This document shows positions 1,885-45,791 of a stretch of DNA of 64,000 nt, one piece after another. This stretch comes from a virus (taxonomy: Duplodnaviria > Caudoviricetes): positions 70,148 to 134,147 of the IMG/VR virus record IMGVR_UViG_3300029967_000162; one strand, 5' to 3'. The notes beneath the pieces were generated by a model. That model had not been told where the DNA came from and searched no databases. It saw only the letters and a program-made list of their open reading frames with translations. The first letter of the stretch is position 1. Every line of letters begins with the position of its first letter. Position numbers and translations under genes: made by a program.

Positions 1885-3198
1885 TTGGAAAGACTTGCCA
1901 AAAATAAATCAATTGCTGACTCTTACAGGCAGACTATGCAGAAGAGGCAGGGGCAAGTCTGCAAAGTGTACACAGTCAAAGTCCAGAAGAACAGGCTCAA
2001 CAAAGTCCAAGCAGAGACTTTGAAGATGCAATTTGTTGAGGCTAAGTGGCTCTACAACTATATTCTCAACAAGTCAATGGAAGGTGATATTAACATCTTT
2101 AAAGCTGACTATAAAGACTTCAAGAAGATAACACATCTTGATAAAGACCACAATGAAGTAGAGGTTGACATATCATTTCTTGATTGTCAAGGCATGCAGA
2201 GCTTGATAACTTCTATCCAGTCTTCTATCAAGACTTTGCACAAGCTGAAGGCATCTGGAAGCAAAGTTGGCAAGTTGAAGTTCAAGACTGACTGGACATC
2301 ATTGAACATCAAGCAGTTTGGTGAAGACAAGATTAGGTCAAAGAACAAAGTCAAAGTTCCTGGCATTCGCAAAGAGCTAAAAGTGAATGGTTTAGACCAG
2401 ATTTTGAATTCAAGGTATGGAAAGCTTGACATAGCAAATGCAAAGCTTATCAAGAAGAATGATGACTACTATGTTGCTATCACCTGCTTCATCGACAAAG
2501 ACGTGTATGAAAGACTAAATGACAAATCTAGAACACTTTATAAAGAAATAGTTGGCATAGACTTTGGTTGTCAGTCCTCATTGACCTTTTCTGATGGAAG
2601 GAAAGTCAACTTGTCTGTTGAAGAAACTGAGCACATAAAGAGACTGCAGAGGAAACTTTGTAGGCAGCAGAAAGGCTCAAGCAACAGACAAAGGACAATC
2701 ATGAAGATCAGGAAAGAGTACGAGAAGATCGACAACAAGAAGAAAGACTTAGCCAACAAGACAGTGCATGGCATCTTTGAAGGATACGGCCAAGTGTGCA
2801 TCCAAGATGAGCAGCTGAACAAATGGAAGAGCCAACATGGCAAGAAAGTCCAGCACTCTTGCCTGGGGCTTGTCAAGCAAAGGCTAATCAACAATGGTGC
2901 ATTTGTCATTCATAAATATGTGCCTACTACAAAGATATGTCTTGAGTGCGGTCATGTTGTTGAAGACATGAAGCTCTTTGATAGGACTTTTAAGTGTCCC
3001 GTCTGTGGAAGCACATTAGATAGAGATGTCCATGCAGCACAGAACATGGTTTGGTATCACCAACACAAAGAGACCATAGGTGTGGAGCGCACCAAATTCA
3101 AGCGACTGGACTTCAAGTCACAGATGGCTAATCTGTTTGGCCATGATGTGTATGAAGGATTTAAGGTCGAAGATGCTCGGTCTTCAGCCGAGCATTAG
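1885..3198 (+). CDS. tnpB: TnpB RNA-guided endonuclease
   Basis: RuvC-I GIDFG, zinc finger CLECG...CPVCG, RuvC-III DRDVHAAQN; 3' end overlaps the RE hairpin. Confidence 0.9.
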   Translation: MERLAKNKSIADSYRQTMQKRQGQVCKVYTVKVQKNRLNKVQAETLKMQFVEAKWLYNYILNKSMEGDINIFKADYKDFKKITHLDKDHNEVEVDISFLDCQGMQSLITSIQSSIKTLHKLKASGSKVGKLKFKTDWTSLNIKQFGEDKIRSKNKVKVPGIRKELKVNGLDQILNSRYGKLDIANAKLIKKNDDYYVAITCFIDKDVYERLNDKSRTLYKEIVGIDFGCQSSLTFSDGRKVNLSVEETEHIKRLQRKLCRQQKGSSNRQRTIMKIRKEYEKIDNKKKDLANKTVHGIFEGYGQVCIQDEQLNKWKSQHGKKVQHSCLGLVKQRLINNGAFVIHKYVPTTKICLECGHVVEDMKLFDRTFKCPVCGSTLDRDVHAAQNMVWYHQHKETIGVERTKFKRLDFKSQMANLFGHDVYEGFKVEDARSSAEH

Positions 3199-4326: not shown

Positions 4327-4442
4327 GTTGTCTTAGAAAAAACTACATGTGTTTGTATCATTGGATGCAAGGAATGTCTCACATTTTGAGAGGACAAAGC
4401 CACTATCCCACTTTAAAAACTTTGACAAAAGAATTTTTGACA

Positions 4443-6104
4443 ATGGCAAAGAAGACAGCAACTGGAGACCCTGGGCAGATGAGTTCTGTGTTTGATCTCA
4501 TAAAGAGCTTTGATGACTCAGCAGAGATCATCGCAGACAGTGCATACTCTAACATCAAAGAGTGGATTCCATCAGGCAACTACATATTGAATGCATGCAT
4601 GTCTGGTGACTTGTTCAAGGGACTTCCTTCCGGCAGGACAATATCTTTGATTGGCGAAGAAGGGACTGGCAAGTCATATTTGCAAGTATCATTTTGTCGT
4701 GAAGCACAGAAACTTGGATGGGTCCCCGTGATATTGGATAGTGAGGGTGCGATTGACTCTACATTTGTTGAACGGCTTGGTGTAGATCCCAAGAACTGCA
4801 TCATCAAGCAGGTGAACACAATCTTTGAGACAAACAACTTCATATCTAACTTGGCCAAGTCTCTGCAAGAGCAGCAAGACAAGTATGGTGAGCACCAGAA
4901 AGTGATACTTGTGCTTGACTCTCTTGGCAACTTGACTTCAAGCAAAGAGCGTGATGACACAATGGCTGGTGAGCAGAAGCGAGACATGACGAAGGCACAA
5001 GAGATTCGTGCACTGTTCAGGGTAAACCAAGTAGCATTGTCTAAGCTGCAGATCCCATGGATTGTAATTGGGCATGTTTATGCATGCCTATCTAAAGATG
5101 CTGAAGTGCTTATGGCTGACAACTCAACAAAGAACATCAATGAGGTATCTATTGGTGAGAAAGTCATGACTCTTGCTGGTCCTAGAAAAGTTGAGTCACT
5201 TCATGAATATGAAGTGAAGAATTGCATACATTTTGTGTTTGAAGATAGTACTTCTCTCACTTGCACACCAAACCATATGTTTGCCCAATCTGTAGAAGAT
5301 GGTGGATATATATGGGTAGAAGCAGCAAATTTGATTGAATGCGACACAGTAGTGCTCAAAGATTCTCATGAGCTTAGAATCACATCAAAGACAATCATAG
5401 AAGAACAAACAAAAGTCTATGACTTGACTGTGAGTGGTGAGCACACATATTTCTTGAAGAATGGAATCATATCACACAACAGCAATGACATGTTCCATCC
5501 AGGCCCTCAGCAGTCAGGTGGAGGTGGCATCAAGTACAACTCTTCTATCACATTGCTCCTCTCTACTAGGAAGCTTGAAGACAAAGAGAATGATGCAGCG
5601 GCTGGCAAGAACATAGGCAACACCCAGACTAAGAATGGCATACTTGTCAGTGTGACACCTAAGAAGTCTAGGTTCTGTGTGCCTAACAAAGTCTCATTCC
5701 AGATTCCATTCTTCAAGGCACCTAATCCATATGTTGGGCTCGAGCAATACTTGAACTGGGAGAATGCAGGTGTATGTCGTGGCAATGTCCTTGATGAGAA
5801 GGCATATGCCAAGCTGAATGCAGCTGAGCAGGCTAAGTGCCATGAGTTTGAGCATGATGGGCAAAAGCTCTGGTGCCAGCCTAAGGACAATGCACGTGGC
5901 ATGGCGGTGAAGCATCTTGGACGGCAAGTCTCATTCATTGAGTTCTTCTCAGATGTCGTGTTCACAGATGACTACTTGCATGAGATCAATGAGAGAGTGA
6001 TCAAGCCAATATTCCAGCTGCCTTCACGAGATGCATTTGATGACATCAAAGATGTTGAGGAGACACTTGGGATCGACCAAGAAGATGAAGAGACAACAGA
6101 GTAG
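4443..6104 (+). CDS. uvsX: RecA/UvsX-like recombinase with a mini-intein
   Basis: Walker A GEEGTGKS, LDSEGA, Walker B VLDSLG, SGGGGIKY. Confidence 0.85.
   Translation: MAKKTATGDPGQMSSVFDLIKSFDDSAEIIADSAYSNIKEWIPSGNYILNACMSGDLFKGLPSGRTISLIGEEGTGKSYLQVSFCREAQKLGWVPVILDSEGAIDSTFVERLGVDPKNCIIKQVNTIFETNNFISNLAKSLQEQQDKYGEHQKVILVLDSLGNLTSSKERDDTMAGEQKRDMTKAQEIRALFRVNQVALSKLQIPWIVIGHVYACLSKDAEVLMADNSTKNINEVSIGEKVMTLAGPRKVESLHEYEVKNCIHFVFEDSTSLTCTPNHMFAQSVEDGGYIWVEAANLIECDTVVLKDSHELRITSKTIIEEQTKVYDLTVSGEHTYFLKNGIISHNSNDMFHPGPQQSGGGGIKYNSSITLLLSTRKLEDKENDAAAGKNIGNTQTKNGILVSVTPKKSRFCVPNKVSFQIPFFKAPNPYVGLEQYLNWENAGVCRGNVLDEKAYAKLNAAEQAKCHEFEHDGQKLWCQPKDNARGMAVKHLGRQVSFIEFFSDVVFTDDYLHEINERVIKPIFQLPSRDAFDDIKDVEETLGIDQEDEETTE
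5085..5480 (+). mobile_element. mini-intein (132 aa, no endonuclease) in RecA/UvsX
   Basis: Starts CLSKDAEV; block B TPNH; block F VYDLTV; ends IISHN followed by Ser(+1). Confidence 0.9.
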
Positions 6105-9375: not shown

Positions 9376-10199
9376 TGCTTGTTGTCATCTAGCAGGTAGT
9401 TCAAGAACTTAGCAGATGCATTGATGTCAAACTTCAAGAACTCTGGCCTAATGTTCTCTTTTGTATAATAAGACCTTCCCATCATTGGATCTTTATAGAA
9501 CCTCATGTCTTTAGGAAGGTTCTTTGTCTCTATCATGAAGATTGCTGGATATATTGTTGTTCTGTTCAAGATTTTCTTGAATCTATCAAGCTTAGAATAC
9601 CAAACATCTGCAAGCAACTCAAATGTTGCATTTAAGTCTGATGAAGGCTCTATGAAATAGATTCTATCAGAATAGCCAAAGTCTTTGTTCTTTCCAGAAG
9701 GCATAAGCCCAATAGTTTCAATCTTCTTTTGTCAAACACTTGCTGTCATATGAAACAATGTTGAACACTTCTTAGAAAACTTTGAGACCGGCTGTACCCA
9801 ATCTGCTTCATATTGATAGTGATGGATTGTTGCACCTTTATATGTTCTTACGCTATATGTAGCAGGGCTATATCCACATGCTTTGAAAATCTTGTCAGCT
9901 TTGCTTACTATGTCTTCATGAACTTTGTCATCAACATCAACAGGTATAGTAAGATGAAGGATAGTAGGCACATTGTTTATGTCTTTTGTATATGACATGA
10001 TTTCATCTAAGTCTAAGTCATCATAGTCAAGCATAGACTTCAAATACCTAATTGCAGCCTTAGGCGAGTAAGTTCGTATCAATCCTTCTTCTATCATGAC
10101 TTCAGCCGCTATTTGAGAGATTCCACGCATCTTTATTTCTTGCTTGCCATTCAATCTTTCTGATATGTCTCTTGCCCAAGCTTGGTTGATTCTCTTCAT
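9372..10199 (-). CDS. ART/KptA-fold-like protein, paralog of 39585..40541; 1 TGA
   Basis: LFHMTASV(W)QKKIETIGLMPS...RIYFI...YKDPMM...YTKENIRP aligns with 39585..40541. Confidence 0.7.
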
Positions 10200-10242
10200 G
10201 GCATTCAAAATAATTAAAATTATTAAAAATAATTAAATTATT

Positions 10243-11454
10243 TTAATTTGTGAGGGCAATCCTCACTGGCCTAGCCACAAGGCCTCTACTCCCTAGCAAT
10301 GCATCAGGAGATGCTTTTCAAAACTTTCTTGCAATGTTGAGCGAACCATTCACATCAGCATTCAAGAGTCCAGTTGGGTCTTTGAACAATCCACGCTTGA
10401 TCCTCTTCCCAGTTGGCTTGAAGAGTTCATCATCAACTTTCCAAGTTGGCAGATAGTCATTGTTGAAGAAACTGCACTTTGATGTATAGCTTTCTTCTTG
10501 CAACACCACATTAATTCCTAACAACTTAGCCTTATATTCAATCATCTTCACAAACTGTCAGAATGGTATCTGCACAAAATTCTGGTTTGACTTCTTTGAC
10601 ATGCTTGTGTCTTGTTTCCATCCTTTGTTGTAACCAACAATGATTGTTGTCAAGGAATGTTCAACGGCTTGATTCACAATCACTCTAGAAGCCTTGTGGA
10701 GATAGTCTTTGACTTTGTTGTTTCTTTTCAGGCTCAATGCTTTGACTTTGTTGCTTGATTTTTGCTTGTTTTGCTCTAACTTTGACTTATAATGTGCTAA
10801 CTGTTTGTTATAGAATTGGTTGATTGACTTCAAAGGTTTCCCATCAATAATGAATGCATTCACTCTATTAGAAGTACATGTTGCTAAGTTGTTTACCCCT
10901 AAGTCTATAGAAAGCCAATTCCCGTTCTGTTCTTTGAGTTCTTGTTCTTCTACTTCATAGACAACTTCTATGATAAGATAATCACCTTTTGGTATTACTC
11001 TAACTTGCTTTAAATCATTAGTATGCTTTGAATTAAATTCTAAATTTGTCTTTGGTAATCTGATAATACCAATTTTCAAAAAGTTCTTGCTTAAAGTCAT
11101 TGAATTATAAGTCAAGACAAATCTTCCTTTCTCTTTATCTAAATAACTAGGTATCCTAACTTTTTTTCCTGATTTCTTCTTGAGCGACTGAAAAAATGAC
11201 TTATAATTGTAATAGACTAACTTAAGTACTTCTTGTGATGTATTTGAAGGCAATGCAAAGTAGTTCTCATCATGTCTGTCATGCAAGAGTCTGTTGAGGC
11301 CATAGTAGTCAAGAAAAGTCTTGTCTTTGAAGAACTGCTGCCTGACTTCATAGAGAGCAGCATTATAGAGGTTCTTAGACAAGAAGCACAAATGATCAAG
11401 CTCTTTGTAGAGCTTGTCTGCCTTCTTGACTATATGTTGCTCAACTAATTTCAT
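10243..11454 (-). CDS. tnpB: TnpB (IS607-associated); 2 TGA
   Basis: SIDLGVNN, EESYTSKCS, NADVNGSLNI; continuous through TGA at 10558 and 10318. Confidence 0.88.
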
Positions 11455-11476
11455 TATTTAATAATCTCAATCATAT

Positions 11477-12079
11477 TTATTTATCTTCAAGCTTCAAATC
11501 TTTTTCAATGAGCTGCAACTTCTCTTTTCTTCTTGATGAGTACATCTTCATAGAGAAACAATGAATCAAAGAGATGATTTCTTCAAAGATTTCTTTCTCA
11601 ATCTCTCTAGGATTGTCTATCTCATTGAGCACTACTATGTCTACTCCATACTTTTCAAACAAAGACTTGAAAGTCTGAAATGAGATTCTTGAAAGTCTGT
11701 CTTTGTAAGTTATGAAGATCTTGTTGATCTTGTATGATGTGACATCATCTAGAAGCTCTTGGAACCCGTCTCTATCAAGTGACATCCCTGAAGCAATGTC
11801 TTTGTAAATCTTTGAGACCTTTACACCATTCTTGAAGCAGAACTGCTCTAATGTAGAGATTTGATTCTCAAGGTCTTTCTTCTGGCAGGTTGAAGAAACT
11901 CTAGCATAGATTACATTGATTTGCTCTACATTCTTGTTAAGTAGTTTATAGACATCATTCTTGTTGTAGTCATATTGGCCGTTTGGTAAGGTCTTTGTTG
12001 ATATTCAGCCTCTAGAGACATAATGACAAAGAGTAGGTCTTGTAATTTTTAACAAAGACAATACTTCTTTAGCTTTCAT
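11477..12079 (-). CDS. tnpA: IS607 serine-recombinase transposase; 1 TGA
   Basis: MKAKEVLSLLKITRPTL...RG(W)I HTH, then YARVSS and DRLSR. Confidence 0.88.
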
Positions 12080-16894: not shown

Positions 16895-16969
16895 TGAGGT
16901 GTCGTATAAAGCTCAATACACAAGATTTTGGTTCTTGCAATCAGGGTTGGATTCCCTGCACCTCAACCA
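16895..16969 (+). tRNA. tRNA-Gln(TTG)
   Basis: Acceptor tgaggtg/cacctca + A + CCA; caaga-ttttggt-tcttg; atypical T loop ttggatt. Confidence 0.8.
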
Positions 16970-17036: not shown

Positions 17037-17267
17037 ATGTGCTTCAAGAAGAAAGACAAGACATATGTTGAAGTTGTAGGAGAGCATTGGCTAGATGAGA
17101 CAAAGATGCTCTCATACAAAGAGTTCATTGCATGCAAGCACCCTTCTGAGATAAAGCTTTGCAAGCTCTATGAAAGTTTTGACGAGCTTGAGAAGACAAA
17201 GCAAGACCACAAGCATAGAATCTTTGATTTGATTCAGAAGTTCATTGATAAAGATTACGGGATGTAG
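17037..17267 (+). CDS. small hypothetical protein; 3' end overlaps tRNA-Pro
   Basis: MCFKKKDKTY..., ORF with typical codon usage. Confidence 0.45.
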   Translation: MCFKKKDKTYVEVVGEHWLDETKMLSYKEFIACKHPSEIKLCKLYESFDELEKTKQDHKHRIFDLIQKFIDKDYGM

Positions 17268-17408
17268 TTCAGTTGGCCAGAACGCTGGTTTTGGGATACA
17301 GAATGATTTACTGTGACAAATCAACATTGTAGTCAAGACGTGAGGTTGAAGATCGAATCTTCCTACAATGTCAACCAGAGGTCGCGCGTTCGAGTCGCGC
17401 CATCCCGA
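17258..17408 (+). tRNA. tRNA-Pro(TGG) with a 77-nt insertion (17296-17372) at position 37/38
   Basis: Acceptor cgggatg/catcccg; anticodon stem ctggt/accag separated by tttggg + insert + a; T arm gcgcg-ttcgagt-cgcgc. Confidence 0.85.
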
Positions 17409-17443
17409 CAATTTAAGTTCAACATTTTAGACTTTCATATATC

Positions 17444-17698
17444 ATGCCAATTGGTCTCACACTCTTGATTGTGTTCTTGCTTGGTGGCTTGCTAGGCTAC
17501 TCACTTCCATTCATGAAGCTCTACATTGACTTGAAGAATGACCCTGAGCTTCGGCAGAGGACTTATGATGAGATGGCAGATTGGTTCATCAAGCAGAATG
17601 ACTGGGAATCTCTCAGAGAGCTGAACTGGTCAGAAGTATACAGAGGATGCAAGAAGAGGATGACTGACATGACTGGCAACATCGATGATGAGAGCTAA
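17444..17698 (+). CDS. small membrane protein
   Basis: N-terminal TM helix. Confidence 0.6.
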   Translation: MPIGLTLLIVFLLGGLLGYSLPFMKLYIDLKNDPELRQRTYDEMADWFIKQNDWESLRELNWSEVYRGCKKRMTDMTGNIDDES

Positions 17699-17757: not shown

Positions 17758-20319
17758 CTATTCAGTGTTCTTTGGTATGTAGTTCGTATGGAACACTATG
17801 TCCTCAAGCATCTTCCACATTGTCGTGAGAGAAGCATCTATCCTGTCAGTCAAGCCCTCAAGTGAGTTGATTGATATGTTCATCACTTTTATAGAGCTGT
17901 CAGTTGCATCAGCAAAGTCAAACAGAGTGCTCAAGTTCTTTGAGTGCGTGGCAACCTTTGTGCTCAAGTCTTTGAATGAGTCTGAGCCCATGATTGCATT
18001 CTCAAGGTTCACGACAAAGTTCTGTATGTAAGCGATGATGTAAGGAATCAGCTTCTCATAGTTGATGTTAGCAGTCTTGATGTCTGACCCATAGAGCACG
18101 CTTGTGTCTTGGCTCTCTACCAAGTATGTCAAGTCAACGCCATTTCATGAGCTGTCACCACCCCATGAAGAGCTGTTCAACGCTGGGCTGTCTGGGTCGA
18201 CATAGAACTCAAGGATCCTGTCAGAAGAGTTCTGCACAGTGCCATCTTCAGCGATGTACTTGTACTCAACATTCTTGGTTGACATCAGTATGTTGATGCC
18301 CGCATAGTAGAGTGGTGTCTGGCTTGCCTCAGTAGTCTGCCCACTTGGGTCTGACACACTCACCATGTGCTCTTGCACGTCAAATATGGTTGAGAGGATT
18401 CTGCCAGCTTCTTCAGTCAAGGCACCTTCTTCATTCAAGAGAGTAGAGAATGCAGAAGCATCATCATAGTACTTGGTGACCTTGACATATGAGTCTATCT
18501 TGTTGAGAGTCGACACATCAAGATGGTCAATGTGCACCCCACTTGAGTCAAAGATTGCCACTGTCTTGTACTCTACATCTTTGTATGCATATGCTTCAGT
18601 GTCATAAGTGTCAACTGCATCTGGCACCTGTATCAGCAAGACAGAGTCATCTAGTGTCTTGCCTGGCCTGATTGTAGAAGCATTCAGCACAGCTGTCGTG
18701 AGCACTGCTGCACGATCACCTGCCACATAAGATGCAAGAGCTGTGCTCAAGTCCTTCACCTGTGTAGCATAAGTGTCATATGCATTCACTACCTGTGCAT
18801 AAGAGCTCTGGATGTTCTTTGTCGTGACGACATTGGTGTTCATCGCATCCACTGCTTGGCTCAAGCTGCTCAAGATGCCAGCGAAGTCAGAAGTGAGGAG
18901 TGAAGTCGTAGTCGTGTTGTCATTGACTTCAGAGTCGGTGTCGTCATAGACAGAGTTCGTCTTCACGTTCACACGGAATGCATAGCCAGTGCCAAACCCA
19001 TTTGCATTGCTCATCTTCTTGGTGAGTGGTGGGATGCAGAATGAAGTCTGCTCTCCAGTCTCATCTCCAGACATGTCTTCAGGGGCATCCAAGAAGAGCA
19101 CGCCAAACAAGTTGGTAGCTACAGGCACCTTAGTCGAGTTGGTCGTGTCATAGACAGAGTAGTAGAGCAAGATGGCATTGAAGTCGAACTGGTCATCAGG
19201 AGCGAATGCATCTGGGGCCTTCACGTTCACGTCATCATAGCTGTTCACAATGTGCGTCACACCAGGCTCAAGCTTGTCCCAGATTGCAGCGATGTCGTTC
19301 ACATCCTTCACAATCTCTACCCCATCAAGGTTAGATCTCCTGAAAGTGAATGTGCTGTCACCCTTGTATGTGATGTCATAGTTGATTGGGTCACTCTTGT
19401 CCCACTTCTGAGTTATGTATGCTCCACCAGTCTTCACATAGCTGAGCATGCTGCTCCACCAGAAAGCGTCATCGTCACCAGACCCATCGCTTGCACTCCA
19501 TGAAGGAGTGTACTCGTCAAACGTGTCGGCGTAGTCAGACCATGGCACGTTGACTGTGTATGTGTTCACGACATTCTCTGCTTCAGACTCACGGCCTTGC
19601 AGAGTAGAAGGGTTGTCATAGATGTATGCCTTGCCAAGCACATAGTTAGTCTCACCATCGTCATCTTTCACCCTGAAGTAGACTTTGCCACCACCATAAG
19701 AAGTCGGCACAGCGACATAAGTCTCATTGAACATGCCAAACTCTGTAGACCGAGAGTTCCCAGCATCTATGGCCCCAAAGCACCTCACGACTTTCTGGTA
19801 GCCTGTGCGGTTGCCTACAGCCTCTATGCTGGTAGAGACATCCTGATCCTCCTCAAAGATCTCTCCACACCTTGTCGTCTTGATGTTGTCATCCTTCCAC
19901 CTGATGGCACCAGTCTCCTTGAGTCACTTCCAGAAGACACGCTCAGACACAGTCTGCAAGTCTTGGTAGTTGTACTCATCTTGGTTCATCAAGAGGGTCT
20001 CAAAGTTCATCGCATAGTTCTGGAGAGATGCAGCGATGTGCCATGATGGAGAGTAGTCCAAGCCACCTTGCCCAGCTACATATGCAAACTCACCTGGTAT
20101 GAGAGTTGGGTTGAAGAAGTTGACTGCCAAGTTCTTCTTGGTTGCAAGCTCTGTGTTGCTCTCTGGTATGTTGAGGAGAGCATAGTGTGAGAGGCACACT
20201 GTGTTGGCTCTTGCATTGAGGTTGAGCCCTATGTCTTCAGAAGCCGATGGGAACACATAGAGGGTCCCACCTTGGCTCCTTGGTTGGTTGATGATTGGTG
20301 TCTTGTTCTGACTAGCCAT
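17758..20319 (-). CDS. large virion structural protein (853 aa); 2 TGA
   Basis: Three ORF pieces in one frame across TGA at 19924 (VFWK-W-LKETG) and 18145. Confidence 0.75.
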
Positions 20320-26600: not shown

Positions 26601-28820
26601 GCGAAGCTCCGTGACCCAAGCTACCTCTATGATGAGATTGCATGGGTAGAAGATGGGGCGCCATCTGGCCCTAAGGTAGCAAAGTTCTGGTACAAGAAGC
26701 TTGCAGAGAATGTGCTCAGGTACAAGCTCTGGCAGTGGAGGCACTACCCAGATTGGCTAGTCGACTCATCGACGTACAACTCATCGCTCCATGAGTTCAT
26801 GGAAGACCTGCTTGGTGAAGACCCATCTTCTTATCTCGAGAGCGGAGGTCCACTCTATGAGCTGAATGACAACATGTACAGCATGATCTTCCAAGCAGTC
26901 GATGGATCGCTCTCACCAACTTCATATGTGCAAGATCATGACTTGGTGAAGTGGATACTCAATGAGAGGGTCCCAGCTGATGTCTCACAGTGGATAGAAG
27001 ACAACTACAATGTGTACTGTAGCAGCTTGTATGCATGGACTGAAGAGAAGCTCCGTGAAGGCATCTACTCTGTGAACAAGTATGTAGATGTGAAAGTCAA
27101 CAGGCTTGGTGATTACTCTCTGAATGCAATTGGCTATGACCACCACAACAACTTGTTCTACAACAAAGCTAACTCTTCTGTGAATGTGTGAGGCATTCCA
27201 CCTTCTGTCGAGCTCTACACAAACAGCCTCTACTCTGGCAATGCATCGACATGGTACCGGTGGAACATGTATGGCGACTTGCTTGGCTGGATAGATGCAA
27301 GTGAAGGAGCCATGCTTGACACCTCTACTCTTGTGGGCATGGCAGAAGATGAACCAGTATATCCACGCAGGTGGAGAATCTATGACTTGTCGATAGGCAG
27401 GAAGAACATCTCATATGATGCTGTGTCATATGCAATAGACACACCAAAGAAGTATGACACATTCAACTTGGAGAACTTGACAGAAGTCTGCACAGAGATT
27501 GCAGTTGAGAGTGACAGCAGCTTGGCAGACACAAGCATGCTTGACTCAAGTGCGCAAGAGGTCATCATGCTGAGGATGCTTGATGAGAATGAAGACTCTC
27601 AAGAGCTCTACTATCCAGGTGCCAAGCTGAAGATCTATGTCTATGATGAAGAGCGGTTTAGGATGTTTGCTTCATATGGGCCATATGTCGTGCTTGACTG
27701 CTCTAAGGCTGGTGAGCTCACAGACCAGAACTACTATGATGACTCTTGGATCAAGCTGAGCACTGTAGGTGTAGAAGACAAGATAGACTCTTCTGTGATG
27801 GTTGGCATGGAGTCTGGGCAGTACAAGTGCTTTGTTGGGAATGTGACAGAGCACAATATTGTGGATGCAGTGACAGACCCATCTGGGAACACGCAGCTCT
27901 CAATCAATGTGCTGAACTCTTCTAACCCTCGCACCATGAGGTATCATGCAGGAGATGTCATCAAGGCAAAGTACTTGCAGTATGATGTAGACTACCCACA
28001 ATACCAGATCAACACCAACTTGTATGTAGGAGAGACTTGCTATAGGATCCTTGATACATCAATAGTTGGTGATGACATAAGCACACTCCAGAAGTACACT
28101 CTTGATGGCTCACTCTGCAAGTCACTCATAGACAACATACACAACAACAAGAGCACCCCAGACAATGAGATGTTCTGCAAGATTAGCTACCCACAGTATG
28201 AGTATGTCAACTATGCAGTCAGGGTGAATGGTGATGCAGATGAAGAGTCTGTGACTAGGCTCTTGACAGATGCTGACGTGTCTGTGAAGGTTGACCGCCT
28301 GTTTGCATCCAAGCTCTCAGTAGAGAACTTCTACAATGACACTCTTGAGAACAGGACTACATTTGCATATGACTCTTCCAAGTGGTTTGCAAATGACTAC
28401 TTAGACAACACATACAGCGGGTGATGCACCGACTATGACTTCAGAGACCTCTGGAGAGACTGGATCCAGGCAGGCAAGTGGTACTCAGAAGACACTGAGA
28501 CATACCAATACCAAGACTTCCCAGTGACACTTAGCATGGGCAAGTCAGTGCTTGTAGGCTCATATGACACATCTGCGACGTTCATCTCTTATCGGCCAGA
28601 GTGGAAGTGGGAAGTAGAGTGGGCAGATACTGAGACATACCTTGAAGACAACCAGCTTGACAGGATGCTTGGGAAGCCAGTGCTCTACCGGTCAATGAAC
28701 AACATGATGAGCGTGCTCACTTCTGTAGAGGGCCCGAACTGGATCACCCTTGAAGCGATAGACCCACTTGGCAACAGGCTCTTCAACACAAGGTCTGGCA
28801 TCTATGTCAGCTCTGACTAG
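23607..28820 (+). CDS. giant baseplate/tail structural protein (1737 aa); 4 TGA
   Basis: Five ORF pieces in one frame across TGA at 24444, 24876, 27189 and 28422; GTYKALMNAVEWLGY resembles baseplate-wedge motifs. Confidence 0.75.
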
Positions 28821-29157: not shown

Positions 29158-30081
29158 ATGACAAAGCAAGAGATTAGGAAGAAGTTCAAGGAGATGAATG
29201 TTGTGTTTGTGTCAAACACAAACTGCATGATGCCTTCACTCTTGAGCTACTCATTGAGGACTTACATAGATCTCGCTGATGGGAACTTTGTGCTCTATCC
29301 CGCTAACATGGGAAATGGAAGGCTTTATGGGTTCAGTATGTTCTACAACATGATCTATGGGCTTGTGCAACACTATGACTACGCTATCTACTTTGATGAT
29401 GATGCTTTCTTGGTGCCAGGTGCTGAAGAGGCATTCTTCCACATGTTTGAGAAGTTTGTAGAGAGTGGATCACTCATTGCTGGCACTCCAGATGGAGGTG
29501 TGGTTTGCCATCGTAACCACAATCCATTCATGGTGAACACTTTTGTCTCTTTCTGGAACTTCAAGGAGATGAGAGTACATGCTATCACACCAGAGTTGCT
29601 CACAGCTAAAGACTCTTGGAGCAGCATCAACAGCATGACCTTTCATGAGTATGATGGGCATGCATCATACAAGTCGATGCTTGCAATGAAAGACATGCAT
29701 GAGGCTGCCATTGCTGACTCTGCAAAGAAGCGTGAAGGCATAGAAGTGCCTTATGCAGCTATAGTGAGGAATGATCCAAGCAACTTAGTTGACCCGCATC
29801 AAGAGCCATGGTCAACTAAGCTTGATGACTTTGAACCATACTACAAGCTGATAGAGTGGCTGCTCTTGAAGTGTGATGGCACTATCTGGTACTTCAATGC
29901 AAGAGATAAAGTGTCTGGGCTTGAAAGCTCTGGATTGAGCTCTGAGATCTATGTGAATGACAATGATGGCAATGCAGCTCCAGTCATCTGGCACTCATGG
30001 TTCTCTCGTCAGTGGATGAACCCAAGTTCTCCTCACCATGAGAGGATTGCAAAGCTCTTGCAAGATCTTGGACTTTCTTAG
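29158..30081 (+). CDS. putative glycosyltransferase-like (DxD) protein
   Basis: AIYFDDDAF, GTPDGG, NTFVSFWN, WHSWFSR; paralog of 226..1326. Confidence 0.55.
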   Translation: MTKQEIRKKFKEMNVVFVSNTNCMMPSLLSYSLRTYIDLADGNFVLYPANMGNGRLYGFSMFYNMIYGLVQHYDYAIYFDDDAFLVPGAEEAFFHMFEKFVESGSLIAGTPDGGVVCHRNHNPFMVNTFVSFWNFKEMRVHAITPELLTAKDSWSSINSMTFHEYDGHASYKSMLAMKDMHEAAIADSAKKREGIEVPYAAIVRNDPSNLVDPHQEPWSTKLDDFEPYYKLIEWLLLKCDGTIWYFNARDKVSGLESSGLSSEIYVNDNDGNAAPVIWHSWFSRQWMNPSSPHHERIAKLLQDLGLS

Positions 30082-30141
30082 AAATCTAGTTTATGATACT
30101 AGATAAGTTATAATTGTTTCACTCTTTAAAACATCTTTTAG

Positions 30142-30987
30142 ATGCAACTAAAATTCAAGAGCTCTGGAAGCAATGCTGAGTTTGCTGCATGAGCTAAGCA
30201 ATTCAAAGAAATCTCTGAATGTCTGCTCATAGAAGCGGATGTAGATCAGAAGAAGTTTGTAGCAAAGTCTTTCACTCAGGACAAAGCATTGGTGAAGTAC
30301 TCCGAGATTACTTTTGAAGATGCTGGCTACACTCTCGACAATGTGAAGCTTGACAAAGGAATTGACCTCACTGGGTCTCGTGTGAAGATTGGTGTGTTCA
30401 TGATCCTCAGCAAGTTCATCGATGTCATAAAGACTTTCAGTGGTGCAGAGCACACAATGACTGTCATGTTTGACAAGAATGTTGAGAAAGACCCAGTTGA
30501 GTATCATTCACAGAGCATTGTGTTCCAGTCTAAGACACTCTCAATCAAGGTTTCTACAGCGAACATATCTGAGTTTGATGAAGTCACTGATGACATGTTC
30601 TTCAACAAAGTGTTTGTTGCTGCTGACCCATTCACTGTCAATGTGACGCCTGATGTGATGAAGAATCTCCTCTCTGTGTCTTCACTCTTGAGCACCTCAC
30701 CAATGCAAGACATCATGGCTGTCTATCTCAAGGAAGAGAAAGGCAAGAAGATGTGCTATGTCAAGGATGATGCTGATGGGACTTATGACTACTGCATAGG
30801 AGAAGCCATTGGAGATGGTGACGCAAAGGACGTGCTGTTGAAGATATTCAGGTACAAGTTTGCTTCTGCGCTCAATGGAGTTTCAACTGATGCCGTGATG
30901 TCATTCTCATCGACTAACCCGAACAGGCTGCTCATCGTGAGCAATGATGGAGACACTAAGACTGTGATATCTGCTGTACGTTATTAA
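30142..30987 (+). CDS. possible sliding clamp / processivity factor-like protein; 1 TGA
   Basis: MQLKFKS...FAA(W)AKQF extends ORF 30289; size and alpha/beta pattern are clamp-like (inference). Confidence 0.4.
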
Positions 30988-33175: not shown

Positions 33176-34858
33176 CTACTTCTCTAGAGCTTCCTCAAAC
33201 TGTTCTTTGATTGCATTGACTCTCTCTTGCAGCTTCTCTGCTTCTTCTGTCCTTATTGCAAGCTCTTTAGAGTGGGCCTCAATTGCATGATAGATGCCGG
33301 TCCATCTCCTATTGAACATGTTGATGCTGTAGTCACTGAGCTCTGGATGCTGTGCATGGAGTTCTCTATGGAGCATGTGATCAAAGTCTATGTCACTGAG
33401 AGCTCTTGCAAACTTCACCGGATCTCTTGTCACTATGTCTGCGATTGCTGCCATCACTGGCTCTCCATCTTCACTGTATCCTAAAAGATTGTTGGCTTCT
33501 TCTTCAAGCACACTGAACTCATCATTCCACCCACTGACTGCACTGCTCACTTCTCCTGCAAGGCTTTGCATACTCTTCAAGAAGCCTTGGCTCTTCACTA
33601 AGTCGATGTCACCAAGATGCTCATAGACTTCCTTTGTGAACTTTGACATGCTTGAGTTCAAGCTAGTCACAACCTTGAAGTTTATGTTGTCAAAGAAGTT
33701 TCCTTTAGCATATCTGATGATCAATGAGAGCGCTTTCCTTATAGATTGCTTAGAGTTAGAGATTCTTGCCATGCTGTAGTCATATGACTCTAGATCTCTT
33801 GTCTCTTTGCCACCTGCATTGTATGGCAAGACTTTTCCATCTCTGACAATCCACTTGTATGGCTTTGGCTGTATCTGCTCTAAGTCATCATTCATCTTTC
33901 GTGCAAACTCTTTCCCAAACTTTTGCTTGTACGCGCTGTTTGCTTGGATTGTGCCATATGCATCTTCTCTTGCCTTAGTGTCAAACTTGCCACTCTTGAG
34001 GAATGCATCTACATCTCTCTTGTTCCTTGCACCCTTGAAGAGGACTACGACATAGTCATCTGGTGCATTGCCCCAAGATATGTCAAGGTCTTTCAGCATG
34101 CTGATTGGACCAGGGCTCTTGAGGATGACATATGGGTGCTTGGCTGCCCCACAGAATGGCTTCCTGACAAGCTTCATCTTGCCTTTAGACCCATCTTCAT
34201 GGATGACATCTATAGTCCTGTACACCTTGTACTTCTCTCTGTTTGCACGGCCTACCTTCACAAATGAGAAGTCTCCATCATCATACTGGCCTAAGTTGCT
34301 GTTGCAATATGAAGATACTTTCCCATGATATGACATTGCTACTACAAGATCTGGCATATCTGCTTCATTAGTGCTTCCAGCACACCACAAGATTGTGTTC
34401 CTGTCTTTCACATTCGTGAACACCTTGCCCATCTTCCTTGTCTCTTTTAGAGAGTAGACACCTACATTTGCATCGCCTGCTTCAGACATCTTGAGCCCAT
34501 CAGTGAATTGGCCAAACTCTATAGAGTCTGGTGCAGATCCAAGCTTCACAAGAGCTGCATGGAATGCTTGCTGGAGCCTCTCTGCTTCTTTTTCAGCCAT
34601 CTCTATCTCTTCATCAGGCACACCTTCAAGCAAGAACTTGTTGTTGCCAAGGTCTTTCACATATTCCCAAATTCGGTTGGACACATTCAAGATGAATCCT
34701 TTATTCTCTCTGTTGCTCTTGACAAACCAAGTGTTGAAGAACTCTTTCCATGAATATGTTGGGTTGCCAAATGGGTTGTGTCAAATTGTGTTCATGAACT
34801 CATTCTCTGTATATGCTTCTGTGAGGTATCTTGAAAGACTGAACTTAGTGCCCATCAT
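33176..34858 (-). CDS. hypothetical protein (possible head/ejection protein); 1 TGA
   Basis: ORF 33176..34690 extends to ATG 34858 through one TGA; YLTEA motif near the N-terminus. Confidence 0.65.
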
Positions 34859-34884
34859 TGAAATGAAATTTAAGATATTAAGAT

Positions 34885-35916
34885 TTATTTGGTGTTGATG
34901 AAGTCATCGATTGCTATAAAAAGTTCATCTACATTTGTGTATAGTGTTCCTAATGGGTAGTCAAAGTCTTTAAACTCTTTGTTGAAAGTGAAATAAAAAA
35001 TTTTAATGTCATTTGCTTTTGATGCTTCTGCTTTTTTCTTGTCAAGCTCTTGCCTATGTTGTAGATTGTGCCTATAATCATTTCACCATAGAACATCTTT
35101 AAAATGCTGAGCTCCATGGTATTCAACAGCAAACTTGTGTTGTGGACAATATCAATCATATCTAAGAGGCTTTGTTCATTCTTGAGTCTTGTCATGAATG
35201 AATTCTAAGTTTGGAAATCTTTGCACTAACAAGTCCCCGATTCTCCTCTCACAATTGAAGATTCCTTCACGTTTGCATTCTGGGCATCCTTCTCCTCTCA
35301 AATGAAGATATGGAAGCTGCCAGAAGTCTCCATGTTCAGGACAAGTTATGCAAACTTTAGTGCCTGTGTCTTTTATTTCAACCTTTGAATAATCATATCT
35401 ATTGCCATGCGCTTCTTTTGCAAGTTTGGTGAATTGATTTTTGTCTGCAATCTTTGATCTGCTATGCAACTTGCTATTGACTTGTTCATTTCTACACTTT
35501 GGGCAGCCATGTGTGGAATAAAGGAAATTTTGTGGTGTCTTGATGAAGTCCCCATGTTTCTTGCAAGTCAATATTACCGGTTTTACACCTGAGACCCAAT
35601 CTATTTTTTCAAATGTGAACTTATCTCCAAACTTTTTATAAGCGGCATCTAAGAACTGGTCTTTTGTCATTCGCTTGCCAGTATTTTCGGAAATATAAGC
35701 TGGATGCCCAATAGAAGACATCCTTGCACATTCTGGACACCCATATTTGTTTTTTAAGAATCTTTTAGGAGGCATTATGAACTCTCCATGTATAGGACAT
35801 ACAATCTTGATTTCAGTGTTTCAGTTTTTTATCTCAACAAGGTTATAATTGAACTTGTCTCCAAATTTTTTATGTGCAGCATTTAGGAACTCCTCAATGT
35901 TCTTTTTCTTTGGCAT
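34885..35916 (-). CDS. free-standing homing endonuclease (CPxHG zinc-finger repeats + Vsr/DUF559-like nuclease); 4 TGA
   Basis: Repeated ICPIHGEF/TCKKHGDF/TCPEHGDF...GCPEC units; C-terminal LRYD(W)YCP...AVEYHGAQHF. Confidence 0.8.
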
Positions 35917-36075
35917 TTCTTTATTTTTTACTTTTCTTTTTATTTATGTTGGAAGTTCCTAGATTTTTGTCATATTGTCTTAACTTTATGCCAATTTGAC
36001 ATAAAATTTGGATTGGCATACATTTTTCAGATATGATGTTCAAAGAAAAATTAACAAACAAACTTAAGTATTATC

Positions 36076-39000
36076 ATGAGTAAAGTAAAACATGTAGCCG
36101 GAATTGATTTAGGTAGCTCAACTCTATGTGTTGCTGGTATCGAAGGTGGCAAGCCAACCGTGCTAGTGAACAGTGAAGGCAACCGGACAACTCCATCTAT
36201 GATGTCCATCAAGAATGGAGAACGCAAAGTTGGTGGCCCTGCAAAGCGCCAGGCAGTCATGGACCCTAAGAACACTGTGATGTTTGTGAAGAGGTTCATG
36301 GGTGTCCCATATGATGACCCAGATGCGTTGAAGATGACAAAGATGGCTGCATATGATGTGGTCAACGAGAATGGCAAGCCAAGGATAAAGCTTGACGGGA
36401 AGAACTACACCCCAGAAGAGATAAGTGCACATTATCTCACCTACATGGCAAAGATAGCTTCTGACTGGTATGGAGACAAGGTGACTGATGTTGTCATCAC
36501 ATGCCCTGCATGGTACAATGACATCCAGCGCAATGCAGTCAAGCAAGCTGGTGAGCTAGCTGGATTGAATGTGCTTAGGGTCATCAATGAGCCTACTGCT
36601 GCAATCCTTGCATCAGACATCGATGTGAAGAAGAAACCAAAGATCATTGTCGTGAACGATCTCGGTGGTAAAAAGTATACTGCCTCCGCGCTTGCAGCAT
36701 AACAAGTGTAAAGTTAAAAATTGGTTAATTGCGGGCAATCCCTTAGAGCTATTAGTACCGTCATATAGTGGTGACATTATATATTGACACCAGCTTTAAT
36801 GTACTGGGTATGGTAACAAGCTAATAGATTGGGTCATCAAAATAAAGGATTTAATGTCCTAACGCAGCCAAGGTTCTTAGAAATAAGAAACAGGTTCAAC
36901 GACTAGAAAAAGTAATCTTAAGCATTATTGTAAGATGAAATTTCCACGAATGCCAATTAGAAGTGGCACCATAGATAAATAATTGAAAGATTATTTTATT
37001 TTATGGAAATGAAAGAGTTCTTTGAAATCTTTGAAAAAAGTATATTTGATATATTTGACCCTAAGACTAATGAGCATTTGCCATTCAAGTCAATTGCATT
37101 TAAATATGAAGCACCTAAATCTAAGATTCAGGAACTTAGTAAATCTATGCATATTTACATTGATGGTGAATATCTAAAAAATTGTAGAAGATGGAAGTTC
37201 AAATATATTTGTAGATGTGGTAAAGAGCAAGAGATTTGGTGTTCTAAACTTATTGCTAAAATTGAAAGAGGGAAGGAGTTTTGGTGCCAGAGCTGTATGC
37301 AGAAATCAAAATATGGCTCAAGATTTGTTGCAAATCCATATGGTACTTCTGGAAAGAAATTTCATCCAGATGAGTATTGCAAACAAGAAGAACCATTAAA
37401 AATAAATTTTAATGATGAATCTGAGCAGTTCAAAAAACAATATGCATTACGTCCAATTGTATTTTCATATGAAAAGTTTAATGAAACATTAGCAAATTGT
37501 TATTCATTGAATAATATTTTACAGGAAGACCTTAAAGATCATGAAATAAAATTAAATTATGCTGTTCCTTCTCACAATCAACAAAAATATACTCAGCATG
37601 TAATGATAGATGGAAAGGATGAAGGAATTCATTTTAAAATGAAGTGTTCTATGTGTGGAAATATAATAAATCCACACATTGATAATTTAGTTAGATCAAA
37701 AGACCTTTCACATTATCTATGTAGAGATTGTGCATTATCAAATAAAACATATCCTATACAAATATACGAACCGTTGAATATTAAATATCAATCTAATCTT
37801 GAATTAAAATTTATAAAAAGATGTGAAGAGCTTAAGATTGATATTTCCAGAGGTCCAAACATTCCATATATTTGAAATAATGAAGAACACATCTATCGAT
37901 GTGACTTCATGCTTCCACAATATAATCTTCTTGTTGAAATTAAAGACAAGCATCAATTTTATCGTAAGCAAACTAGAATTGGTAAGGAACCAGCAAAATC
38001 AGCTGCTGCAAAAGCTTATGCTAAGTCTATAGGTTGAGAATTCAAAAAACTTTTTTCTGAAGATTTTGATACATTCTTTTATTCACTTCAAAAGAGATAG
38101 TCTGAACTTAAGCGAAAGCTTAAGATGATAGGATAAAGAGCCTATCGATAACATGATTGGGTACAGAAGACGTGACAGTGTGTGAAGTCTCTGATGTAGA
38201 TGGGCAGAAGATGATTGAGGTCCTTGCATCTTATGGGGATGTCTTCCTTGGAGGACAGAACTATGACAACGCCATAGTGCAGTGGATTTGCTCTGAGTTT
38301 GAGAAAGACAATCCTGGCATTGACTTGCACAAAGACCCTATGGCATATTCTAGGGTTGTAGAAGCCGCAGAGAAAGCAAAGATTGAGCTCTCTACTTCTG
38401 CATCGACTGAGATCAACTTACCTTACATCTCTGCAAAAGATGGCAAGCCTCTCATGCTTGACATAACTCTCACACGTGCAAAGTACACAGCTCTCACACA
38501 GGACTTGACAGACAGAGTCATTGAGTGTGCTCGCACTGCAATTGAGAAGGCACACAAGACTGTAGATGAAGTTGATGAGATTCTGCTTGTCGGCGGCATG
38601 ACTCGTGGTGTGAACATCCAAGAGGCACTCACAGAGGCATTCCACAAGCCACTCAACAAGAGCGTGAACCCAGATGAGGCAGTTGCGCTTGGTGCAGCAA
38701 AGCAAGCTAACATAATAGTAGGTGGCACAAGTGCAGATGATGTGCTCTTGCTTGATGTGACACCTATCTCTCTTGGCATTGAGACGATGGGAAATGTGAT
38801 GACAAAGCTCATCGATGCAAACACCACAATCCCTGTCACTAAGAAGCAAGTCTTCTCTACAGCTGAAGACAACCAGCCTTCTGTGACTATTGTCGTGCTG
38901 CAAGGTGAACGGCCTATGGCGGCTGACAACAAAGAGATTGGGAGGTTCAACTTGGATGGCATTGCCCCTGCAAGGCGTGGAGTGCCTCAGATTGAAGTCA

Positions 39001-39491
39001 GCTTCGACATAGATGCAAATGGCATACTCTCTGTCAAGGCACAAGACAAAGGCACAGGCAAAGAGCAGCACATCACGATTGAGAGCCCGAACTCTCTGTC
39101 TCAGGAAGAGATTGACAGGATCAAGGCAGATGCAGAGAAGTTCAGAGAGCAGGATGAGAAGAAGGAGAAAGAGCTCAAAGAGCTGAACAGTGCAGAGTCA
39201 TTCATCTATGGCATAGAGAATGCAATGAAAGATGAATCATTCAAGAGCTTGATCCCAGCTGACAAGGTTGATGAGCTCAGCAAAGGCATAGAAGAGGCAA
39301 AGAGCTTTGTTGAGAAGAGAGATCTTGAAGGCATGAAGCCATCACTTGAGAAGGTGCATGCAATCTGGGACCCTGTTATAGAGAGTATGTACAAGCAGAG
39401 CCAGGCTCAAGAGAATGGAAGTACCGCTCAAAGCACAAGCAATAATAGTTCCGCTAATGGGCCTGACAATGCTCCATATGAAGAAGTGTAA
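36076..39491 (+). CDS. dnaK: Hsp70 chaperone DnaK, join(36076..36669,38160..39491)
   Basis: [26 protein letters not shown]|[46 protein letters not shown]. Confidence 0.93.
36670..38159 (+). mobile_element. group I self-splicing intron in dnaK
   Basis: Exon ends in U paired with G in P1 (cggtggt/gcctccg); P aattgcggg, Q aacgcagcc, R gttcaacgacta, S aagagatagtct; terminal G at 38159; splicing restores DLGGGT. Confidence 0.9.
37003..38100 (+). CDS. intron-encoded endonuclease (zinc fingers + PD-(D/E)xK/TnsA-like domain); 2 TGA
   Basis: CxxC pairs; YQSNLE...PYI(W)...YRCDF...LVEIK; TGA at 37873 and 38035; AT-rich. Confidence 0.8.
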
Positions 39492-43802: not shown

Positions 43803-44486
43803 ATGGCAATTCTCAAAGGAACACCTGCTAAAGACATATTCTCTGAGATAGACACAGCAATCAAGATAGAAGAGGTTGTTGACAAATATGTCACTATAAG
43901 TGGGCAGATTTGTAATTTGGACAAAGATTCTGAAAATGCAATAGGAATGATCAATACCTTTGTTGATCCAAGTGTATTTGCTCCCTATCCGAAAGACAAC
44001 ATCAAGTGGACTTATAGTGATGGGATGATCTATGCAAACACCACCCAGAAATACACTTCAATGAACTTCATAATGTTTCGTTCTTTTCGGGACTACAACA
44101 TCAACATAAGGATTGGCAAAGTGGAAGATTCCTTCAACTTTAATATGTCTGAACTTACAGCATCTCGGAAGATTCCAATTGAAGACTATATAATGATGTT
44201 GCCAAAGCGTTGTTCTCGAATCATGATTGACTTTCATCCATTCAAGAATTACAAAAATAGTGAAGAGCTCTATCAATTGCTTGAAGCCGCTGTGAAGTGC
44301 TCATCACAGGCACAATGTTTCAAAGGTGTGTGAGACATTGCATCAACCGTTCCAAAGTTGAACAATGCCTTGAAGGACATCTATAAGAAGACATATCAAG
44401 GTGTGATGAAGATTCATCCTAACATGGCAAAGTGGATGAACAACCTTGGATTCTATGACTGGGGCACAATCTTGAGAAATCTTTAG
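43803..44486 (+). CDS. hypothetical protein (ILKG-leader family); 1 TGA
   Basis: MAILKGTPAKDIFSEIDTAI; reads through TGA 44331 to TAG. Confidence 0.65.
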
Positions 44487-44511
44487 ATAAATTTATAGGG
44501 ATTATACAGAG

Positions 44512-44880
44512 ATGATTAAAGAGATATATTGCAGGATGCCATCTGACAAGAACTATGTTCCTGTCCTTGACACATGCAATGAAGTGGAGCAGATCTTGCA
44601 GAGGTGCAGAGTCATACTTGGCACCAGACCAGGTGAAGTGCTTGGTGACTATACATTTGGTGTGAAGCTTGAAGACTATGTCTTCTCTATGAACTTTGAC
44701 AAAGATGAGCTCAGGAACATGATCATACAAGCTATCAACACCTATGCAAATCCATGGCCTAGCAAGTACAGCATTGACTGTGATGTCAACTATGGCCATG
44801 ACCATGACTCTCGCTCAGACTATGCGGTGATTGACATAATCATCAACCAGAAGAAGTATATGGGCGTGATAGTCTCTTAA
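44512..44880 (+). CDS. baseplate wedge protein, gp25-like
   Basis: ILGTRPGEVLGDYTFGVKLEDYVF. Confidence 0.75.
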   Translation: MIKEIYCRMPSDKNYVPVLDTCNEVEQILQRCRVILGTRPGEVLGDYTFGVKLEDYVFSMNFDKDELRNMIIQAINTYANPWPSKYSIDCDVNYGHDHDSRSDYAVIDIIINQKKYMGVIVS

Positions 44881-44899
44881 AAATAATTTTTTGATTAAA

Positions 44900-45562: not shown

Positions 45563-45575
45563 GATTGCGCTGGAT

Positions 45576-45652
45576 CGCCCTAGTGGGCGGCTAAACACAA
45601 GGATGATTAACTAATCAAAAGTTCAAATTTGAAGGTTTGCCATCACTAGGCG
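45576..45652 (+). repeat. intergenic structured repeat, copy 2
   Basis: Matches 22173..22244; closing stem cctagtg/cactagg. Confidence 0.8.
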
Positions 45653-45732: not shown

Positions 45733-45791
45733 CAATGTCAATTTAGAGTTGATAAATTATAAAGGAATTAATTTTTAAAGAATTAAAGATT

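Follow-up and report, generated by a model that had tools for sequence, protein, structure and literature searches.

A tRNA-shaped insert in a phage tRNA-Pro gene and its likely relatives among the introns of Lak megaphages

How is a phage tRNA to be made from a gene that is interrupted by 77 nt immediately after the anticodon? To our knowledge, the tRNA introns of bacteria are regarded as exclusively self-splicing (group I), and an interrupted tRNA-Pro(UGG) gene lies in a stretch of phage DNA that fits no such intron. The stretch (hereafter the window) is the terminal 64 kb of an IMG/VR virus record of 134 kb, for which CheckV gave a completeness of 24%, so that the genome would measure roughly 550 kb. 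The original prediction for this locus described a nested tRNA-like minihelix within the tRNA and proposed an undescribed splicing or processing route.

The novelty of the phenomenon does not stand. Lak phages were reported in 2019 to 'have tRNAs with introns', which were called enigmatic and of which one was tRNA-like (Fig. 4 and Table S6 in Devoto et al. 2019, Nat Microbiol, PMC6784885). A 2026 survey found intronic sequences in tRNAs of 262 (77%) alternatively coded jumbo phages and noted that these introns 'could encode another tRNA' (PMC13037316). No mechanism for tRNA-shaped megaphage introns was found in the literature searched. The phenomenon is thus already published with its mechanism unexplained, and the tRNA-Pro intron of the window is very probably a further member.

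The split tRNA-Pro gene and its surroundings

Positions 17258-17408 matched the Rfam tRNA model RF00005 from end to end with 53.4 bits (E 1e-8; the gathering score is 29 bits), and the alignment contained a single large insertion of ~80 nt in the anticodon loop. ARAGORN missed this gene in its default run; with introns allowed, it identified a tRNA-Pro(tgg) whose intron of 77 nt occupies 17296-17372. When joined, the exons fold into a cloverleaf of 74 nt, in which the anticodon loop reads UUUGGGA, and they align with the intron-less tRNA-Pro(UGG) of Lak-A2, the D arm and the anticodon loop being identical. Since its anticodon loop is identical and the intron is absent, the Lak-A2 gene can be used as an empty-site homologue. 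By all three comparisons, removal of the insert directly 3' of the anticodon restores a canonical tRNA, as had been predicted. The predicted insertion site between positions 37 and 38 was also borne out, with the reservation that the boundary slides by one A (37/38 or 38/39). The 3' exon does not encode CCA. The GC content is 36% in the intron and 61.3% in the spliced tRNA (ARAGORN), and averages 43% over the record. The split tRNA-Pro is a real feature; judged from its exons, the gene is intact and probably functional. A UCA (TGA-reading) anticodon formed from the 'tca' at the end of the intron was rejected, as the alternative junctions leave loops of 5 or 6 nt. The parts of the gene are listed in Table 1.

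Table 1. Parts of the split tRNA-Pro gene, in window coordinates
Feature	Position	Strand	Basis
5' exon of tRNA-Pro(UGG): acceptor 5' strand, D arm, anticodon stem 5' strand, loop nt 32-37 (UUUGGG)	17258..17295	+	RF00005, ARAGORN -i
Intervening sequence, 77 nt, ORF-less	17296..17372	+	RF00005, ARAGORN, family parse; Lak-only covariance model aligns to exactly both boundaries
5' hairpin UACAG / loop AAUGAUUUA / CUGUG, outer pair U.G	17297..17315	+	Family parse, centroid fold, covariation among Lak hairpins
A-rich linker ACAAAUCA	17316..17323	+	Family parse
Acceptor-like stem, 5' strand ACAUUGUAG	17324..17332	+	Fold and family parse
15-nt core in place of D and anticodon arms	17333..17347	+	Family parse
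T-arm mimic GAAG / AUCGAAU / CUUC; closing pair of the G53-C61 type, UCGA in the loop	17348..17362	+	Fold and family parse
Acceptor-like stem, 3' strand CUACAAUGU, contiguous with the T-stem (9 + 4 = 13 bp)	17363..17371	+	Family parse
Unpaired C in the discriminator's place, final intron nt	17372..17372	+	Family parse
3' exon: A38, anticodon stem 3' strand ACCAG, variable loop, T arm, acceptor 3' strand, discriminator A	17373..17408	+	RF00005, ARAGORN

A tRNA-Gln gene (16895-16969), a 53-aa ORF (17106-17267, + strand) and the tRNA-Pro gene lie head to tail on the same strand and may therefore be co-transcribed. With its stop codon TAG (17265-17267), the ORF overlaps the 5' end of the tRNA-Pro gene by 10 nt.

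The source appears, from its gene content, to be a Lak-related megaphage in which TGA encodes Trp. The 853-aa structural gene next to tRNA-Pro (17758-20319, - strand) is open only when TGA is read as Trp. Metagenomic homologues of its product show 33-45% identity over ~90% of the length, one of them being from Wendovervirus sonii (660 kb), and the best matches among GenBank phage records were 15 Prevotella Lak phages, with 42% identity over ~55% of the length. Genes for an Mfa-type fimbrillin, for a protein with an OmpA domain, for DnaK/DnaJ, for a RecA/UvsX-like protein that contains an intein and for TnpB likewise point to a megaphage of Bacteroidota. The host thus probably belongs to this phylum, and the archaeal or eukaryotic context that would make a 37/38 intron canonical is absent.

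The window carries other inserted elements. The dnaK/Hsp70 gene is split (36076-39491, + strand), with 36076-36702 corresponding to positions 1-203 of the HSP70 profile and 38157-39491 to positions 196-599. The insert of ~1.45 kb (35% GC) contains a 365-aa ORF (37003-38100, which needs TGA as Trp) without a Pfam match, and sub-threshold matches to RF00028 flank this ORF at 36717-36958 (E 0.026) and 37950-38124 (E 9e-4); it is probably an ORF-bearing group I intron. In the RecA/UvsX-like gene (4347-6104, + strand), the RecA core spans residues 68-217 and is followed by Hint/intein splicing domains (residues ~243-379). The TnpB gene (1885-3198, + strand), with OrfB_IS605 and Cas12f1-like TNB domains, represents an IS605-family element within the phage. 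Islands of low GC content (35-39% versus ~44% elsewhere) were found at 10001-12000, 34001-38000 and 44001-48000, one of which contains the dnaK insert.

A common plan in seven introns

We compared the tRNA regions of the Lak-A1, A2, B1 and C1 phages and parsed seven introns in five tRNA species: the tRNA-Pro intron of the window and six Lak introns (tRNA-Phe of Lak-A1 and Lak-B1, tRNA-Gly of Lak-A2, tRNA-Tyr of Lak-A1 and Lak-B1, and tRNA-Thr of Lak-A1). The rules of anatomy given here were derived from the same seven sequences that they describe, six of which come from Lak phages. The order of parts was identical in all seven, namely a hairpin, a linker, an acceptor-like stem, a T-arm and a tail.

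When folded alone, the window insert was no more stable than shuffled sequences (z = -0.88), and its structure must therefore be argued from its relatives. The 5' hairpin has 4-6 bp and begins 1-3 nt past the 5' junction in all seven introns. The 1-3 unpaired nucleotides that precede it always end in A; they are UA except in the tRNA-Phe introns, where UUA stands before ACAG. The Lak counterparts of the window hairpin are ACAG..CUGU, which is identical in the window intron and the tRNA-Phe intron of Lak-A1, CAGG..CCUG, ACAAG..CUUGU and CAAUC..GAUUG, and three of four pairs of this helix change on both sides among the Lak members. The original prediction had instead placed a gattt/aaatc hairpin in the insert. 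This hairpin is the minimum-free-energy choice, whereas the centroid structure contains ACAG/CUGU, and it is the (U)ACAG/CUGU(G) hairpin at 17297-17315 that the relatives keep. The gattt/aaatc pairing competes with the family hairpin and would sequester the conserved linker. That linker is A-rich, 8-12 nt long and includes AAAUYAA in every member. In the window, the linker and the next A give AAAUCAA, which is shared with the tRNA-Phe intron of Lak-A1, the other members having AAAUUAA.

The 3' strand of the acceptor-like stem is continuous with the T-stem in all seven introns. The two stems together comprise exactly 13 bp in each, divided as 9+4 or 8+5, compared with 12 bp in ordinary tRNAs. 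The predicted 9-bp stem (17324-17332 with 17363-17371) and T-arm mimic (17348-17362) are present in the window. The T-loop has 7 nt and conforms to xUCRWxx, being of the UUCGAAU type in Lak phages and AUCGAAU in the window. The tail is C in five of the seven introns and CU in both tRNA-Tyr introns, so the 3' junction always lies 1-2 nt past the acceptor-like helix, and the 3' exon always begins with AA (AACCAG in the window). The original prediction had noted that this exon supplies an ACCA; these nucleotides simply belong to the anticodon-stem strand ACCAG, and the Lak relatives have no CCA there. The core varies in length: with 15 nt, no other member has one as short as the window intron, the Lak cores ranging from 18 to 79 nt, and the core of the Lak tRNA-Thr intron contains D-arm-like and anticodon-arm-like hairpins, the latter with a 6-nt loop. 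As a whole, too, the window intron is the shortest of the seven members compared.

The Lak junctions lie at 36/37, giving A37 and A38. In tRNA-Pro, position 37 is a G and an AA begins only at position 38, which places the window junction at 37/38. Since the junctions differ in this way between host tRNAs while they are constant relative to the hairpin and the helix, they track the landmarks of the intron and the AA rather than the body of the host tRNA.

The window intron thus resembles the Lak introns in that an insert of about 80-140 nt without an ORF interrupts a phage tRNA gene right after the anticodon, with the same series of 5' hairpin, AAAUYAA linker, 13-bp acceptor/T helix with T-loop, C tail and AA exon, in a related phage lineage with stop codons apparently recoded in both. 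It differs in its host tRNA (tRNA-Pro is new) and hence in its 37/38 rather than 36/37 junction, in a hairpin loop of 9 nt instead of 6, in the A that starts its T-loop, in its 15-nt core and in its GC content (36%, versus 17-30% in Lak introns).

Comparisons among Lak phages bear on the history of the element. The tRNA-Thr gene of Lak-C1 lacks the intron, and its exons are identical to those of the intron-bearing Lak-A1 allele; this empty site fixes the ends of the Lak-A1 tRNA-Thr intron exactly and reveals no target duplication. A near-identical intron resides in two very different tRNA-Tyr genes of Lak-A1 and Lak-B1, from which it appears that the element has probably moved between genes. 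In Lak-A1, an intron-less tRNA-Tyr(GUA) gene was found ~2 kb from the intron-bearing tRNA-Tyr(GUA) gene (27791-27874 and 29984-30148 of the analysed Lak-A1 region), which makes the split gene redundant. Lak-B1 carries an 86-nt intron of the same family in a tRNA-Phe(GAA) gene (MK250020.1, about 126885-126970). Both ARAGORN and Rfam missed this host gene, and the intron was found by the covariance model R1 (33 bits, E 0.002). Only one tRNA intron is listed for B-Lak genomes in Table 1 of Devoto et al. 2019 (PMC6784885).

MAFFT put the intron hairpins out of register by 1 nt, and the covariance model was therefore seeded from one intron and the rest were aligned by Infernal. The single-sequence model R1 matched the Lak tRNA-Gly intron and the Lak tRNA-Phe introns, including that of Lak-B1, and did not find the window intron. 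The model R2, built from Lak introns only, aligned to exactly 17296-17372 with the hairpin, the linker, the acceptor stem and the T-arm in register. Its score of 16.2 bits (E 2.2) is not significant alone and was the second of six matches at E<=10 in the window; R2 is strongly AT-biased, the Lak introns having 17-30% GC and the window intron 36%. The chance that one of six random matches overlaps the intron is estimated at ~0.7%, and agreement at both boundaries would be far rarer. The window and Lak introns share the motifs ACAG..CUGU, AAAUCAA and UCGAAUC, the 13 bp and the C|AA junction. Taken together with the R2 alignment, these motifs make it very likely that the window insert belongs to the Lak-type family of tRNA-shaped introns. 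Similar inserts, for which the original prediction had proposed to search, occur as the six Lak introns with the same plan; in the 134-kb record itself the insert is single-copy.

No orthologue of the window intron was found in the collections searched, and its conservation is therefore deduced from the family. A blastn search of phage records detected no close relatives of the locus. In viral contigs, neither exon-plus-gap and intron patterns nor a protein-seeded search found relatives of the locus, and a hairpin-linker-T-loop pattern gave one match, by chance. The same pattern gave 22 matches in metagenome contigs, comprising 5 to the Lak tRNA-Phe intron and 17 by chance. A 21-nt exon word of the tRNA-Pro gene had no match in metagenome contigs, and no tRNAs were found on the contigs that carry the closest homologues of the 853-aa gene next to tRNA-Pro. 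R2 gave one weak match, outside a tRNA, in four uncultured phages (0.46-0.64 Mb) and one 255-kb IMG/VR record.

Probable removal from RNA and the competing explanations

The known types of tRNA intron do not fit, in agreement with the original prediction that the insert is neither of group I nor of the archaeal/eukaryotic type. An Rfam scan of 17150-17500 at E<=10 detected only the tRNA and one chance lncRNA match, with no ribozyme or intron family and no match to group I (RF00028). The 5' exon ends with G (or A) and not U, and the intron ends with C (or A) and not G. Group I was rejected on these wrong terminal nucleotides, the length of 77 nt and the unmatched RF00028. Group I introns of bacterial-type tRNAs (cyanobacterial tRNA-Leu(UAA), Azoarcus tRNA-Ile) are likewise inserted in the anticodon loop and probably mobile, but they exceed 200 nt and have a P1-P9 core, whereas the window intron possesses neither this core nor the 5'-exon U or the terminal G. 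Archaeal and eukaryotic introns, which are excised by EndA/TSEN at a bulge-helix-bulge (BHB) and joined by RtcB or Trl1, share the position 37/38 and a probable excision by proteins. The window intron differs from them in its bacterial host and in a junction that follows intron landmarks, and it forms no BHB: nucleotides 32-35 (UUUG) cannot pair with AAUG, the intron nucleotides preceding the 3-nt bulge. The EndA family PF01974 had no match in the 134-kb record or in the complete Lak-A1 and Lak-B1 genomes, whereas archaeal controls were matched.

Covariation was examined in the Lak introns. All 82 cells of the alignment are standard pairs (100%), 10 of 17 stem pairs change on both sides, none of 500 shuffles reached the observed values, and pairing collapsed when the registers were slid. 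In the tRNA-Phe intron, the T-stem AAUGG/CCAUU of Lak-A1 is replaced by AUUAG/CUAAU in Lak-B1 with pairing kept, while the core has diverged with indels. The exons of the same gene have also changed from Lak-A1 to Lak-B1, a T-stem pair from C-G to U-A and the pair 27-43 to U.G. The covariation that had been proposed as a check is thus found in the Lak stems. Since the Lak tRNA-Phe keeps its fold while bearing the insert, removal of the insert from RNA is the easiest explanation. The stem covariation and the compensatory exon change argue for such removal, and we regard it as fairly likely that the intron is removed at the RNA level.

Were the insert instead a selfish DNA that is never removed from RNA, the tRNA-Pro would be dead and a host tRNA-Pro would serve the phage. 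Its single copy in 134 kb would be in keeping with this, and the intron-less tRNA-Tyr(GUA) beside the split gene in Lak-A1 raises the possibility that split copies are dispensable. This explanation is nevertheless unlikely, because the window exons are undamaged (53.4 bits), the fold of the Lak tRNA-Phe is maintained by compensatory exon change while the intron stems covary, and the tRNA-Thr exons are identical in the intron-bearing and empty alleles. Structural selection on the mimic, as indicated by the Lak stem covariation, would also be expected if the nested tRNA-like RNA were itself the product, either a decoy for tRNA-targeting defence nucleases, as the original prediction had allowed, or a small regulatory RNA, with the tRNA gene as a platform for its expression and processing; tRNA-like signals are known to release other RNAs, as in mascRNA and mitochondrial punctuation. 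We consider this improbable, since it leaves the intact exons and the constant site just after the anticodon unexplained, and the core, the expected seat of a specific function, is the least conserved part.

A small RNA of a new kind that splices or cleaves itself, with a catalytic fold made up of hairpin, AAAUYAA linker and T-loop helix and without the need for a nuclease, would account for junctions that are fixed relative to intron landmarks and not to the tRNA body, and for the conservation of the single-stranded UA before the hairpin and of AAAUYAA from Lak phages to the window phage. It is a little less probable than a dead gene: the core varies from 15 to 79 nt, pairing between intron and exon is absent even though the anticodon varies, the ribozyme and intron families of Rfam gave no match at E<=10 (hammerhead, twister, HDV-like, hatchet and pistol were the small self-cleaving families considered), the lone insert folds no better than shuffles, and the close mimicry of tRNA points to recognition by proteins. 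The least probable alternative is a miniature element of the IS200/IS605 type (PATE) that is excised precisely at the DNA level. It would agree with the TnpB gene in the window (1885-3198), the lack of a target duplication and the hairpins near both ends, but the insert is single-copy in 134 kb, the flanking tetranucleotides differ among members (UGGG, UUGU, UGUA, UGAA, UUCC), and the tRNA-consensus T-loop and the G.U pairs in the outer window hairpin and the Lak-B1 tRNA-Tyr T-stem fit RNA rather than DNA hairpins.

A candidate processing route and its meaning

RNase Z cuts pre-tRNAs one nucleotide past the tRNA helix, and RNase P cuts at the 5' end of the helix. Both leave 3'-OH and 5'-P ends, and ATP-dependent RNA ligases join such ends without repair. 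Mitochondrial tRNA punctuation and the MALAT1 mascRNA exemplify tRNA-like processing signals. As in these systems, the mimic in the window intron is sited so that end-processing enzymes would cut its borders, but there the flanking RNAs are released and not rejoined, whereas the flanks of the window intron need ligation to give a tRNA.

We slightly favour processing of a three-part intron (hairpin, linker and tRNA top half) by enzymes that recognise features of the intron itself, with sealing by an RNA ligase as the last step. Protein enzymes would cut the pre-tRNA on both sides of the insert, reading the structure of the intron and not the tRNA body. The 3' cut would be RNase Z-like, one nucleotide past the helix and always before AA; RNase P could release the mimic at its 5' end (17323|17324); and a further nuclease would cut 1-3 nt in front of the 5' hairpin. 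The 3'-OH and 5'-P ends would then be sealed by an ATP-dependent RNA ligase of the PF09414 type, or, alternatively, cyclic-phosphate ends would be joined by the host RtcB. The specific scheme of RNase Z and RNase P with an additional nuclease and a ligase is tentative, and on balance we doubt it in this exact form.

The original prediction that tRNA-processing nucleases read the nested mimic agrees with the 3' junction, which lies 1-2 nt past the helix in all seven introns. It does not extend to the 5' junction. This junction is located 28 nt upstream of the mimic and precedes a different conserved hairpin, so that RNase P and RNase Z alone cannot explain it. We know of no tRNA-processing enzyme that would be expected to cut at this junction. 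At the 3' side, too, a simple RNase Z ruler is not an exact fit, because the helix has 13 bp instead of 12 and the tRNA-Tyr tail has 2 nt. A possible regularity is that either junction is placed 1-3 nt 5' of a helix with (W)WA after it; speculatively, this would suit a single structure-guided endonuclease. Other ways of defining the cuts were judged unlikely: RNase P at the 5' junction, as no helix begins at intron +1 in any member; pairing between linker and exon, as the anticodons vary but the linker hardly does; and MazF-type cutting at UACA, as the tRNA-Phe introns lack this motif, which is situated within the intron and at no fixed distance.

The proposed search for ligases gave a divided result. 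The PF09414 RNA-ligase family exceeded the cut-off at four places in Lak-A1 and three in Lak-B1, and a 227-aa PF09414 gene of Lak-A1 lies ~8 kb from the main tRNA cluster. The 134-kb record of the window phage, about a quarter of its genome, yielded no ligase gene, and RtcB was absent from this record, Lak-A1 and Lak-B1 and was found in Bacteroides. In the Rnl1 profile search, the controls themselves had no match.

The window intron comes from a divergent lineage (43% GC, with TGA apparently recoded), and since it retains only the hairpin, the linker and the 13-bp tRNA top half, it shows which parts are indispensable. Its value thus lies in defining the conserved core and in providing a small test substrate, not in a first discovery of the phenomenon. 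The 151-nt pre-tRNA is a compact in vitro substrate for RNase P, RNase Z and RNA ligases, and three rules can be tested directly: landmark-fixed junctions, a helix whose length is always 13 bp and cleavage ahead of AA, all of which rest on seven sequences, six of them from Lak phages. It is conceivable, though we hold it with considerable reserve, that megaphages of bacteria splice tRNAs by a third route that depends on proteins alone. The intron would carry its own signal in the form of a tRNA mimic and a hairpin, RNase Z/P-like end-processing enzymes and one more nuclease would cut at the sites that the intron defines, and an ATP-dependent RNA ligase would rejoin the anticodon loop. If so, the member of 77 nt would approach the smallest possible substrate of that route.
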